Shown: piece by piece, positions 39,331-63,730 of the stretch | How the letters are laid out: each line of letters begins with the position of its first letter | Numbering within the stretch: the first letter of the stretch is position 1 | Origin: a virus | Lineage: Duplodnaviria > Heunggongvirae > Uroviricota > Caudoviricetes | Virus record (IMG/VR): IMGVR_UViG_3300012996_000001 | Location: 1-64,000 of that record | Strand: one strand, 5' to 3' | DNA: 64,000 nt | Position numbers and translations under genes: made by a program | Notes under the pieces: model-generated | Database searches by the model: none | What the model was told of the DNA's origin: nothing | Seen by the model: the letters and a program-made list of their open reading frames with translations, nothing else

Positions 39331-39774
39331 ATGTTTTACACATATGTTAATCAACTTCCGATGGTGGAGGGAAACCTCCGGTTGAGCCGGGGTGACCGCT
39401 TGAATTATTCTTGTGGGATCCTGAGGAAATCGAAGCCGGACTCCGAGGGCTTTCGAGCTTTTGTGCTGTATGACAAAGCCCGAGGGGTAGGTTATCGCAT
39501 AAACCGTAATGGTATGATGGTGGAATACCCTGATCACCAGGTTTTTGTAGGTAACCCGGAGGAACTGAAACACACCCCTTTTGCTGTGACTGGAGACGAG
39601 GCTGAGATTAACTCCTTCCTTCTGCTCTGCGGTAGAATAACTGAAGAGCACAAGCATAGACAATCTTTCGTTAACAGATTACGGTATTACACAACAGAGC
39701 CTGTCGGCAAGTTAATCCTTGCAGGCGGGATCATTTACGCCATTATCACACTTATAGTGCTGATCTTTGGGTGA
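39331..39774 (+). CDS. hypothetical protein with C-terminal TM anchor
   Basis: GGGAGAAAG RBS. Preceded by AT-rich promoter region 39135-39300. Confidence 0.4.
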   Translation: MFYTYVNQLPMVEGNLRLSRGDRLNYSCGILRKSKPDSEGFRAFVLYDKARGVGYRINRNGMMVEYPDHQVFVGNPEELKHTPFAVTGDEAEINSFLLLCGRITEEHKHRQSFVNRLRYYTTEPVGKLILAGGIIYAIITLIVLIFG

Positions 39775-39779
39775 CACAG

Positions 39780-39814
39780 GTCGGCTACCGTAAGGTGGTC
39801 GGCCTTTTTCTTTG
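39780..39814 (+). terminator. rho-independent terminator
   Basis: An 11-bp stem with three G-U pairs, GTAA loop and a TTTTTCTTT tail. Confidence 0.5.
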
Positions 39815-39822
39815 GGGGTTTT

Positions 39823-40167
39823 ATGACTCAGGTGGGTATTTTCTTTAAGGGTGCGTTACCGGATGTGACTAAACTACCGCCCAGTGCAGAGAGAGGAGAT
39901 GCCTACTTGGTCGGCGGGGTGACCTACGCCTACATGAACGGAACGTGGTTGCAACTAGGGGCTCAATTGAACAATTTTTTCCAAAACAATTTGTGTTACT
40001 CAGGGGTAGCTGTTACTCTACTTTCAGAAAATGACTTAGAGTCTTTGTTCATCTGCCCAATCGATTTGTCGGAAGAAGATCTGGAGTTTTTCAAGATCAC
40101 CTACCCGGAAGATTACCGTACATTTGAGTATCTCTGGAAAGGGGCGGATAAGGTAAGGGTTGCATAA
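39823..40167 (+). CDS. paralog family member 1 (114 aa)
   Basis: C-terminal module EDLEFFKITYPEDYRTFEYLW. Confidence 0.45.
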   Translation: MTQVGIFFKGALPDVTKLPPSAERGDAYLVGGVTYAYMNGTWLQLGAQLNNFFQNNLCYSGVAVTLLSENDLESLFICPIDLSEEDLEFFKITYPEDYRTFEYLWKGADKVRVA

Positions 40168-52466: not shown

Positions 52467-52984
52467 CGCAAAAGAAAATAAAAATAAAAATTTCTGTTGA
52501 CACGAAGACCGAATTTTGTCTAGCAAACCATACCCAAACCATACCTGTTAGCGCATTTTGTGAGCAAACACAGCCCTGCACAGGCTTACGGTGCCCTTCA
52601 CCCTGGCCGGGTAGTCACCCGGCACAGGTCCGCCTGTTTACGTATCTATGCACAGAACGCGATTCTTTATTCATGAAATAAACTCTTGACTTTCAAGGCT
52701 TACAGCCTCAATAAAGACCAATAGAAAAAGGGGGTAAAGCACTCAACACAAGTTAAACATAGTTTAACGTTGAGCGCTGGGAACAAGCTGAGACATTTTG
52801 CGTAAACTCAGCTTTTCACGTAGTGGAAAAGTGAATCTACGATTCATCGCTTTAGCGACAGTGTAGCAAAATGGGGCGGGTTGGTTACCCTTTTTCTATT
52901 GGTCGCTCCCTACGGTCGCGCCCTCAACACTCTGAGCGCTGGGAACGAAAGACTAAGGAAAAATTTTGTAAATTGTTGATTTAG

Positions 52985-53000
52985 TTAATGATAATCATTA
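52985..53000. promoter_or_regulatory. perfect Fur-box core AATGATAATCATTATC
   Basis: 16/16 identity to the centre of the E. coli Fur consensus GATAATGATAATCATTATC. Confidence 0.45.
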
Positions 53001-53355
53001 TCGTATGCACAGAAATGCATAAGTATTGTAAAGATTATTCAGGATTTCATGAGTTTACTGATTTAGACTTTATGCACATTTTATAGGTTGAGTCAACAGG
53101 GTTAAATCCTTCGTATAAGCCATCCTGAGCACAGTTAGGGTTGGGCAGTACCCTAGCCCATTTTGGCGGATATGTCGTTAATAAGCACTTTGCTGCATAG
53201 AATTGGATGAGAATAGATCGCATTTCCACAAAAGGGTAGTTTTAGGTTGGATTGTTGAATGATGGGTTACTACAGGTTGGGGGTGGCTGATCTGCCCACT
53301 TACCGTAGGCAAAGAAAAGCCCGCTCAAGGCGGGCCAGTCTCAGTATCTAATCTT

Positions 53356-57369: not shown

Positions 57370-57681
57370 TTAACGATTATTTTTCAGTTTCCAATCTTCA
57401 TATTGAGAAGGGGATATCATGCAGACCGTCTCACCAACCGGGAAATGATCCCAACCTGTGACGTAGTCTGTTGACAGAAGAATAGCCACACACTGCACAT
57501 TTTCCACTTCATCCTCGGTAACCATAAGATGCGGCGATGGTGCTTCAATTTCTTGCACGGTGATTGCAGTTTCACCCTTGTAAAATACGTCGCCGGGGAC
57601 AAGGTCTAAAACATTTTTAGTGAATTGCATATCAGATACCCCAACGACGAAAAGTGGATGATTTATTAGCCTTAAGTTCAC
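57370..57681 (-). CDS. hypothetical protein (103 aa)
   Basis: ORF. Confidence 0.4.
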   Translation of the reverse strand: MNLRLINHPLFVVGVSDMQFTKNVLDLVPGDVFYKGETAITVQEIEAPSPHLMVTEDEVENVQCVAILLSTDYVTGWDHFPVGETVCMISPSQYEDWKLKNNR

Positions 57682-57874
57682 GCTTAAGACGGTTACAGCG
57701 GTTTGACATTGCGAAGTGTGACGGGGTTACAATCGTTGCGCCCGTGTTAGTGTGGATTTTCATTACTTGCTGTTTCATGATTCGATTCCTGTTTGTTGGC
57801 GTTTCGTCGCCCTGTGATTGCATTATGTATCAACCAAACCAGGGCGTCAATAGCCTAAAACAAAAATATTTAAA

Positions 57875-62594: not shown

Positions 62595-62861
62595 ATGAAA
62601 ACAAATACGGAATTATTAATACAGGCGTTAGGCTGGCAAAGCGGCACCGTTCACGAGGTGGCACAGCAGACCGGAATGACTGTCAGTCAAGTGTCAGAAC
62701 TGCACACTTTTGGCGACAGTGTTTACAATACCCCGCGCCGCCGGGGTCACTGGGACGCCAGCCAGGGTACTATCGCCGCTGCACCGTCTGACTTGAACGA
62801 CGCAAGCGGGTTAATCTCTTATTGGTACGGGGTTATCCAATTCCACAGGGGTTATTTTTAA
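62595..62861 (+). CDS. hypothetical protein (88 aa)
   Basis: RBS ACGAGGG. Confidence 0.4.
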   Translation: MKTNTELLIQALGWQSGTVHEVAQQTGMTVSQVSELHTFGDSVYNTPRRRGHWDASQGTIAAAPSDLNDASGLISYWYGVIQFHRGYF

Positions 62862-62868
62862 AATCCTA

Positions 62869-62898
62869 TTGACGGCCCGGAGCAAGGCGGGCTATATT
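62869..62898 (+). promoter_or_regulatory. promoter TTGACG-N18-TATATT driving a non-coding structured region
   Basis: No ORF follows. See the ncRNA candidate at 62905-63060. Confidence 0.4.
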
Positions 62899-62904
62899 AT
62901 TGGA

Positions 62905-63060
62905 ATAAAGAGAGTAAAAGCCACCCACGGCGCTAAACGGGGCTAGCATACCAGGGCACTGGTTGTAAGGTGGATCGCCGGTAGTTCGTCCTTACAAAAC
63001 TTGTGGGCGGTGTGTTATTAAATGGCGCTCGCCCCGTCGCCCCATAGGTGGCACACTAGA
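62905..63060 (+). ncRNA. candidate structured ncRNA
   Basis: Long-range helix GCCACC..CGGCG..ACGGGG (62928-62955) pairs with CCCCGTCGCC..GGTGGC (63027-63052). It encloses hairpins CCAGGGCACTGG and TTGTAAGG...CCTTACAA (8 bp). Confidence 0.3.
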
Positions 63061-63104
63061 AAAATATTAGCGGCTATCTCGTGATCCATTTTTTAAAACT
63101 CCTA

Positions 63105-63290
63105 AACGGCCAGAAAAATTTTTTCCTCTTTCGAAATTTCACAGGAAAATTTTTTGTCATTAGATAATTTTCGCCACCGAAAAAATGCGAGCACATATTT
63201 TTCCCCGCCCGAAAAATCGTACCTCCAAATTTTTGGCGCAAGAAAAATTGGCTCAGGTGAAATGAGAAATCCAAAATTTTCCGGCTAATG
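63105..63290. repeat. phased A5/T5 tracts (GAAAAATTTTTTC / CCAAATTTTTGG-type), about 7 copies at roughly 30-bp spacing
   Basis: Centres near 63113, 63147, 63182, 63213, 63228, 63245 and 63268. Track ORF 63074..63274(-) is probably spurious. Confidence 0.45.
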
Positions 63291-63316
63291 AATTTTGTAA
63301 AGATTGAAATTCCCCA

Positions 63317-63346: not shown

Positions 63347-63404
63347 TTATACATGGCGAGGGGTGACGGGATTCGCGAGGCAAACACGGGAGGTGCCTGT
63401 CGTT

Positions 63405-63520
63405 TTGCAAATGAGAATGATTATCATTCAGCAATGTAAATGAGAAAGATTCGCATTCAAGGTCTCAAATGAGAATGATTATCATTTGACTTTTTAGAAA
63501 TGAGAATGATTCTGATTTGC
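63405..63520. repeat. four tandem Fur-box-like 19-bp repeats AAATGAGAATGATTATCATT (two perfect, two degenerate)
   Basis: Copies start at about 63410, 63437, 63467 and 63496. GAGAATGATTATCATT matches the Fur-box core GATAATGATAATCATT at 14/16 positions. Confidence 0.5.
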
Positions 63521-63569
63521 ATTTTTATTTTCACCTACCACGAGGATTTCGAATACGTTTTTGATTTTA

Positions 63570-63730
63570 AAATTTCGATCGAGACCCCGGCGCGAGACCT
63601 CTGTCGAGAAACCGAACACGATCGAGAAATTAAAAAAGCGATCGAGACCCCAGTTTTTATAGCTCGACTTCTTGCTTTTGCTCTGGAGATAGTTTACGAT
63701 TGCCAAGCTAAAAAGTCGATCGAGACCCTG
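63570..63730. repeat. iteron-like repeats CGATCGAGACCCC (three full copies plus partials)
   Basis: Full copies at about 63579, 63640 and 63716; partials CGATCGAGAAA (63614), GTCGAGAAACC and GCTCGAC. Confidence 0.45.

Follow-up and report, generated by a model that had tools for sequence, protein, structure and literature searches.

A putative family of small structured RNAs encoded by large virulent phages of Enterobacterales and Aeromonas

Comparative sequence analysis identifies a 93-nt element, RNA1, as one member of what is, by its conservation and predicted fold, an undescribed family of phage-encoded small structured RNAs, carried by over 200 large virulent phages that infect enterobacteria or Aeromonas. 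The element lies in the window, a 64,000-nt stretch of viral DNA. Its core has a purine-rich leader and a compact H-type pseudoknot, then a hairpin that varies in length and sequence, followed by a constant segment, AAGGUNNAUCGCC(GGKAG). An earlier, sequence-only reading of the locus had proposed a promoter-driven structured non-coding RNA of about 150 nt closed by a long-range helix. The structured non-coding RNA is borne out by homologues and covarying helices, but the unit conserved family-wide is the 5′ 93 nt of the region and not the 150-nt closed domain. The coordinates of all features are collected in Table 1.

Table 1. Positions of RNA1, its parts, and neighboring elements in the window.
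Feature	Position	Strand	Details
Promoter P1	62869..62898	+	TTGACG (62869-62874), 18-nt spacer, TATATT (62893-62898)
G+C-rich hairpin in P1 spacer	62874..62893	+	flagged terminator-like
RNA1 core	62904..62996	+	covariance model R1: 89.7 bits, E = 2e-21, full model length
H-type pseudoknot (predicted)	62920..62942	+	S1 GCC 62920-22/GGC 62929-31; S2 CCC 62924-26/GGG within 62939-42
Hairpin P3	62946..62966	+	62947-48 and 62950-54 pair with 62959-65; U62949 bulged; loop GGCA
Constant motif AAGGU-GG-AUCGCCGG-U-AG	62967..62984	+	follows P3; family form AAGGUNNAUCGCCGGKAG
Probable P2 remnant (KP2025-type) and RNA2 start (CTTGTGGGCGGTGTGTTATTAAATGGCG)	63001..63026	+	from alignment
Lineage-specific C-rich 3′ arm	63027..63052	+	pairs with 62920-62925, 62929-62932, 62937-62943
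A/T-tract array	63058..63300	.	~31-nt repeat spacing; this position shared only with L200; context
Promoter P2	63317-63345	+	TTGACT, 17-nt spacer, CATAAT; context
RNA2, second conserved element	~63350-63405	+	6-bp closing stem; context
Four palindromic iterons AAATGAGAATGATTATCATT	63409..63527	.	29-31 nt apart, Fur-box-like (14-15 of 19 consensus matches); context

A sensitive BLAST search with positions 62840-63080 returned 221 phage records, which matched only about 62860-62995. The carriers belong to the Vequintavirinae, the Stephanstirmvirinae, and the Aeromonas phages of Plateaulakevirus. Loci were read from GenBank phages and IMG/VR contigs, and a covariance model (R1) was trained on 37 sequences. 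The first covariance-model searches gave 41 matches at 57-108 bits, representing 40 distinct sequences; one further true member each was found afterward in the loci L195 and L200, for a total of 42 distinct members. Chance loci in which the 18-nt search pattern is present scored at most 26 bits, compared with 57-108 bits for members, and the ~120 loci from a metagenome motif scan, none of which exceeded 26 bits, were accordingly assigned to chance. Scanning 185,579 genomes of bacteria and archaea for the pattern gave five hits, a single one of them true, and this was a phage fragment binned in a metagenome-assembled genome; RNA1 was not found by blastn against E. coli genomes. Because the sole true member from the genome scan is itself a phage fragment, RNA1 appears to be confined to phages. 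The genome of Aeromonas phage 4L372D holds a second place that matches the RNA1 query.

The absence of coding potential noted in the sequence-only reading was confirmed: no ORF of at least 30 aa occurs on either strand between 62862 and 63073. Together with length differences among homologues that are not multiples of 3, this marks RNA1 as non-coding, and a coding reading was rejected. The Rfam scan that had been suggested as a check (4227 models) gave no match in the RNA1 region, either at the gathering score or at E ≤ 10. ARAGORN and the Rfam tRNA/tmRNA models detected nothing in the RNA1 region and only the ten tRNA genes clustered at 48-2693 of the window, to which RNA1 has short and unremarkable local similarity. 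Likenesses to SRP RNA, to L15 of RNase P, and, within tRNAs, to the tRNA-Ala acceptor stem and positions 5-13 were rejected, as the tools used gave them no support. Type III antitoxin RNAs are built of tandem 34-36-nt repeats that are processed by the toxin; ToxI and pseudo-ToxI were rejected as identities for RNA1 because there are no tandem repeats within 62904-62996. A riboswitch comprises an aptamer and, after it, an expression platform through which a same-strand downstream gene is controlled; neither the window nor the annotated relatives have a same-strand ORF downstream, and no Rfam riboswitch matched. A description of RNA1 was not found in the searched literature on non-coding RNA or replication origins of the Vequintavirinae, rV5, phAPEC8, PVP-SE1, and Plateaulakevirus.

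In database comparison, the window phage comes closest to Vequintavirinae myophages, Certrevirus among them, which share ~77% identity with it over no more than 5% of a 24-kb query; it is therefore a new, distant rV5-like member. Given this low overall similarity, RNA1 is among its most conserved DNA. The promoter claimed in the sequence-only reading (TTGACG-N18-TATATT, here P1) is present and conserved in relatives. It matches the consensus at 10 of 12 positions, is of the sigma-70 early type, has an AAAA-N3-TATTGAC upstream element 5′ of it, and is predicted to start transcription at about 62905. An early-promoter class with its consensus has been published for Certrevirus, and P1 fits it (PMC7344957). 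Across three phage groups, the relatives that we read have an equivalent −35/−10 pair at the same distance from RNA1. This promoter, together with a terminator in the Aeromonas phages described below, argues that the element is transcribed as a plus-strand RNA.

The P1 spacer holds a dyad of its own. Relatives carry other perfect dyads at this site (e.g., GCCCCA..TGGGGC and AGCCC..GGGCT), with compensatory substitutions between phages, and the dyad looks like an intrinsic terminator of the upstream 88-aa ORF, nested in the next promoter. This ORF (62595-62861) belongs to phrog_33408, a family with no assigned function, and has subthreshold helix-turn-helix-like Pfam matches. In L200, the ORF has shrunk to a short remnant and RNA1 is retained, indicating that RNA1 is independent of it.

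In some 40 relatives, the core folds as an H-type pseudoknot, one hairpin, and the constant motif. In the pseudoknot, the GCC and GGC strands of S1 pair around the 5′ strand of the S2 helix: the 4 nt before GGCUA..., upstream of P3, partner with the 4 nt between GCC and GGC. The A-rich third loop, (G)CUAAAC, occupies 62932-38. S2 occurs as CCCC/GGGG, CUCC/GGGG, CCAA/UUGG, CCAG/CUGG, or CCAU/AUGG, and its two variable pairs are distributed as CG 11/AU 6 and CG 10/AU 3/GC 1/UA 1. S1 covariation is limited to one lineage, with a single C-G to A-U change in Aeromonas phage 2L372X (GGAC/GUCU); one GU variant was seen in L048. Because the pseudoknot loops shift by 1-2 nt between clades, column-based counts fail, and we set the register by hand and fitted it to the model. 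In this N-padded, hand-registered alignment, 95.6% of pseudoknot cells were paired, compared with 30-52% in slid controls, and four pairs had changed on both sides. Two interleaved helices preserved by compensatory changes identify the predicted fold as an H-type pseudoknot, in the hand-set register. The third loop contains a structured 52-53-nt insert in L068/L191 and L032 (Aeromonas phages 4L372D and 4L372XY).

In hairpin P3, all six model pairs had changed on both sides, 89% of cells were paired (12-40% when slid), and none of 500 shuffles did as well. Its stems range from GC-GAAA-GC to helices of 9 bp, and one is flipped. The flanking positions 62946/62966 covary as well (A.G 28, G.U 6, G-C 5, A.A 1). 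The covariation check called for by the sequence-only reading came out in favor of P3 and, in the hand-registered alignment, the pseudoknot in the wider family, and in favor of the closing helix in two genomes only. Both hairpins of that reading are present: the first (62950-62963) is part of the family-wide P3, and a perfect form of the second (GUAAGG...CCUUAC, 62964-62995) is confined to this window.

The constant motif follows P3. AAGGUNNAUCGCC is identical in all 42 distinct members, L200 included; GGKAG is retained in every member but L200, where the motif continues as CGCAAC. The apparent invariance of the full 18-mer is due in part to the way in which loci were collected, and only AAGGUNNAUCGCC is truly constant. 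Among the aligned members, no conserved intramolecular partner for the motif was found. A CGGCG/CGCCG pairing between the pseudoknot and the motif was rejected, since Aeromonas phage 2L372X has CGUCU with the motif unchanged. In a three-way-junction closure (GGCU/AGYU) proposed by RNAalifold and in a GGU/GCC mini-hairpin, the pairs are invariant or vary only as G-U/G-C, and L200 is without the UAG strand.

The long-range helix of the sequence-only reading was recovered with both of its arm pairs (62920-62933/63039-63052 and 62937-62947/63027-63037) and corresponds to the minimum-energy structure from RNAfold (−58.3 kcal/mol). Against dinucleotide shuffles, the plus strand gave a marginal z = −2.0 (8 of 200 shuffles fold as well) and the minus strand z = −4.1. 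The C-rich 3′ arm that completes this helix is missing from ~40 other members, in which the core runs straight into TTTGTAAAGAnnTGTAAAGA and P2. L200, a metagenomic relative that lies on a 153-kb IMG/VR contig and was found by searching with the upstream 88-aa ORF, alone shares the layout of the window: RNA1, a degenerate P2-like stretch, the C-rich arm, the A/T-tract array, P2, RNA2, and iterons. No further members of this lineage were found in IMG/VR or GenBank phages.

When the window and L200 were aligned, 33 of 34 closing-helix cells were paired, L200 keeping 16 of the 17 pairs, and 4 of 17 pairs had changed on both sides (GC to CG, CG to UA, GC to CG, and GC to UG). Slid controls were paired at 32-59% with zero to one double-sided changes, and enforcing the helix in L200 cost little (−47.7 kcal/mol vs. 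a minimum of −48.4). The closing helix, with its compensatory changes, therefore appears real but specific to one lineage, on the thin basis of two sequences. Moreover, it uses both strands of the pseudoknot, with which it competes, so the two folds are mutually exclusive.

Between the core and the 3′ arm, positions 63001-63026 are probably a remnant of a KP2025-type second promoter with the start of RNA2, with moderate support from alignment. The A/T-tract array announced downstream by the sequence-only reading begins at about 63058, with its repeats spaced at 31 nt. Window positions 63001-63300 and L200 positions 1720-1990 form a common inserted module between RNA1 and P2. Similar A/T-tract arrays are placed after the iterons in other phages. 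The shared module suggests a rearrangement or recombination scar.

Throughout the Vequintavirinae and Stephanstirmvirinae, RNA1 sits in a non-coding region of ~1 kb with a common order: a small plus-strand ORF, P1 with RNA1, TTTGTAAAGAnnTGTAAAGA, P2, RNA2, three to five palindromic iterons, arrays of A/T tracts or GATCGAGAC repeats, and an opposite-strand gene. The loci of these two subfamilies have no intrinsic terminator after the RNA1 core. RNA2 has a closing stem in which one pair varies (AU 6, GC 6, GU 3, AC 2), has a constant AGACAAACA loop, and extends exactly to the first iteron. Half of the lineages have AUA in place of its leading AUG, which covaries as a base pair; RNA2 is thus not a leaderless ORF, and a coding reading of it was rejected.

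The 19-bp iterons (AATGAGAATGATTATCATT; window, L001, L004, L005, L013, and L200) match the E. coli Fur box at 14-16 of 19 positions, in overlapping 6-nt registers, and 5 of the 15 window sites with at least 14 Fur-box matches cluster there. The iterons could be Fur sites, serving iron control or Fur titration, instead of or besides being origin iterons. The best Fur box of the window is a near-perfect site elsewhere, at 52984-53002 (GTTAATGATAATCATTATC, one mismatch; shuffled sequence gave 0.05 hits at three or fewer mismatches). Beyond the iterons, positions 63550-63729 contain three 39-nt repeats, each ending in CGATCGAGACCC, with extra copies of GATCGAGA between them; these repeats also occur in the Certrevirus phage phiTE, and phi92-like phages have AAACTTTAAATAAT-type arrays instead.

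RNA1 is arranged differently in Plateaulakevirus. There it is a stand-alone gene in a 310-nt gap between two ORFs, both of which lie on the other strand; it has a promoter of its own and, ~45 nt past the core, an intrinsic terminator that is bidirectional. These loci are without iterons, A/T array, or RNA2, and the ORFs beside RNA1 are not homologous to those in the window. This arrangement argues for a self-contained module that acts in trans. Two further proteins of the window, both on the minus strand, have relatives in the RNA1-carrying Aeromonas phages: a 63-aa basic protein related to T7 gp0.5/0.6A (57632-57823) and a 217-aa protein related to an HNH endonuclease of Aeromonas phage 2L372X (6515-7168). 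The small basic protein, which lies near RNA1 in both groups, was rejected as a specific partner: such T7 gp0.5/0.6A-like proteins also occur in many phages in which RNA1 was not seen.

We consider a trans-acting RNA working through its constant segment to be the best reading of RNA1, with a probability of about 0.4, because RNA1 stands alone in Aeromonas phages, has a strong early promoter, and carries this constant segment. On this reading, host RNA polymerase would make RNA1 early in infection as a discrete, non-translated molecule, the pseudoknot and hairpin would form a stable scaffold for action in trans, and the constant segment would be the recognition site for a conserved partner. This partner may be a protein or an RNA, of the host or the phage, and RNA1 may serve as a decoy, sponge, or guide. 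A trans-acting base-pairing small RNA would be expected to have its own promoter and terminator, a conserved single-stranded seed, and a complementary target; for RNA1, a promoter is found everywhere, a terminator only in the Aeromonas phages, and the constant motif is present.

Among the three functions put forward in the sequence-only reading (regulatory small RNA, 6S-like RNA, and replication-priming RNA), a regulatory small RNA fits best, but target searches found none: there was no complementary target site within the 64-kb window, and duplexes with E. coli rRNA (rrn operon) were no better than those of shuffled motifs. Nucleotides 104-112 of E. coli 23S rRNA (2363-2371 of the searched sequence L197), ACCGGCGAU, are the exact complement of AUCGCCGGU in the motif. 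A 9-mer match of this kind has a few-percent chance of arising in 4.5 kb, and its duplex energies are no higher than those of shuffled motifs. A more specific and rather doubtful idea is that RNA1 represents a new class of phage RNA effector, in which the constant AAGGUNNAUCGCC segment would capture a conserved host component and the 3′ arm would switch the fold in the window lineage. Candidates for this component are a defense or RNA-processing protein, a signaling nucleotide, and nascent 23S rRNA (nt 104-112).

Some observations count against action in trans. The 3′ half of the motif is not retained in L200, and the enterobacterial core, with no terminator, is invariably found a short way 5′ of P2, RNA2, and the iterons, a fixed place that fits a cis-acting or origin-linked role. 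An origin-associated transcript is the first alternative to be weighed: P1, and then P2, would fire into iteron-bearing and A/T-rich DNA, and RNA1 would prime or activate replication through an R-loop or through transcriptional activation. It stays in play because of this fixed position beside the iterons in enterobacterial phages, where the ~1-kb block also holds P2, three to five iterons 29-31 nt apart, and A/T-tract or GATCGAGAC arrays, where the core lacks a terminator, and where, in the window, the A/T-tract array directly follows the RNA1 region. We nevertheless regard it as unlikely, if well worth keeping in view. Aeromonas RNA1 lies in its 310-nt gap with its own terminator and with neither iterons nor A/T array, the iterons, with their likeness to Fur boxes, may be something other than origin repeats, and primer RNAs are not known to depend on a conserved pseudoknot and a constant 13-nt motif. 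There is also no mapped origin in carriers of the enterobacterial type; the rV5 paper gives skew analysis only (PMC3606486).

The promoter-proximal position of RNA1 would suit a cis regulatory leader, either an aptamer that senses a ligand or protein or a polymerase-modifying, put-like element, controlling read-through from P1 into the non-coding DNA downstream. The compact pseudoknot with its A-rich third loop and constant junction nucleotides is reminiscent of small riboswitch aptamers, and the two mutually exclusive folds of the window and L200, each of them supported, could be switch states in that lineage. However, there is no same-strand ORF, ribosome-binding site, or terminator downstream to control; in Aeromonas phages, the terminator follows immediately and the next genes are on the opposite strand; the alternative helix is restricted to two genomes; and no Rfam riboswitch matches. 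A leader of this kind therefore seems quite improbable.

It is also conceivable that the conserved entity is the DNA, in the form of protein-binding sites or single-stranded hairpins, for instance a site at an origin where a primosome or primase is loaded. Of the 166-nt stretch, the minus strand folds better (z −4.1) than the plus strand (z −2.0); the constant motif, in which no covariation is seen, could be bound by a protein; and the surroundings are full of DNA repeats. We think this very unlikely, since three phage groups have a conserved promoter aimed into RNA1, which in Aeromonas phages is also followed by a terminator, since a few wobble pairs (U.G in S2 of L013, G.U in S1 of L048, and U.G in L200) would be A.C mismatches on the other strand, and since a hairpin free in length with its pairing kept is typical of RNA. 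Finally, 6S RNA is a rod of ~180 nt whose central bubble imitates an open promoter, and a 6S-like RNA sequestering RNA polymerase, which drew on the earlier picture of a closed promoter-driven RNA of ~150 nt, can be dismissed almost entirely, as there is no 6S-family match at E ≤ 10, the conserved unit is a 93-nt pseudoknot plus hairpin with no long rod or extended duplex with a central bubble, and the closing helix is absent in ~40 of 42 members.

Phages of the rV5-like, phi92-like, and related groups are widely isolated, serve in therapy and biocontrol work, and have hundreds of sequenced genomes, in whose annotations the ~1-kb block has been left blank; in the rV5 genome paper, the block bearing RNA1 is drawn as a gray “non-coding” box (PMC3606486). 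A discrete predicted RNA gene can now be placed in this block; its sequence is better conserved than the remaining genome, its predicted fold is pseudoknotted, and an unrelated group of Aeromonas phages has it as well. Should RNA1 turn out to be a decoy or regulator, the very short list of known functional RNAs from virulent phages would grow; should RNA1 be linked to an origin, it would locate the unmapped replication origin of the enterobacterial carriers. Under either reading, covariance model R1 permits RNA1 to be annotated.

Among known systems, RNA1 is comparable to the orphan structured motifs in Rfam, several of them phage-associated, in that it combines conserved sequence and a covarying fold in non-coding DNA with no assigned function. 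It differs in matching none of the 4227 models, in occurring only in large virulent phages whose hosts are Enterobacterales or Aeromonas, and in having its own consensus promoter. Origin transcripts and primer RNAs are known from ColE1 (RNA II), T4 (oriF/oriG), and T7 (primary origin). They are like RNA1 in that promoters for the host polymerase fire into iteron-bearing, A/T-rich non-coding DNA, but RNA1 combines a constant motif with a conserved fold of tertiary type, and its Aeromonas copies lie away from iterons. The pseudoknot of T4 gene 32 resides in an mRNA leader and serves translational autoregulation; it shares with RNA1 a compact form with two stems of 3-4 bp near the 5′ end of a phage transcript, whereas no ORF follows RNA1. 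The put element of HK022, likewise a promoter-proximal structured phage RNA, consists of two stem-loops that act in cis on polymerase and cause read-through of terminators ahead of genes; RNA1, in contrast, is itself terminated in the Aeromonas phages, with no genes beyond to be served. The remaining comparison is with pseudo-ToxI of Pectobacterium phage phiTE, a non-coding RNA that acts as a decoy against host defense (PMC3475682). Identity with RNA1 was rejected because the two loci are 67 kb apart in phiTE: pseudo-ToxI, with its 36-nt tandem repeats, is at 106,714-106,772, and RNA1, which has no repeats and a different fold, is at 39,709-39,847. Nevertheless, the presence of such a decoy in the same phage group indicates that phages of this kind use RNA mimics (PMC3475682).
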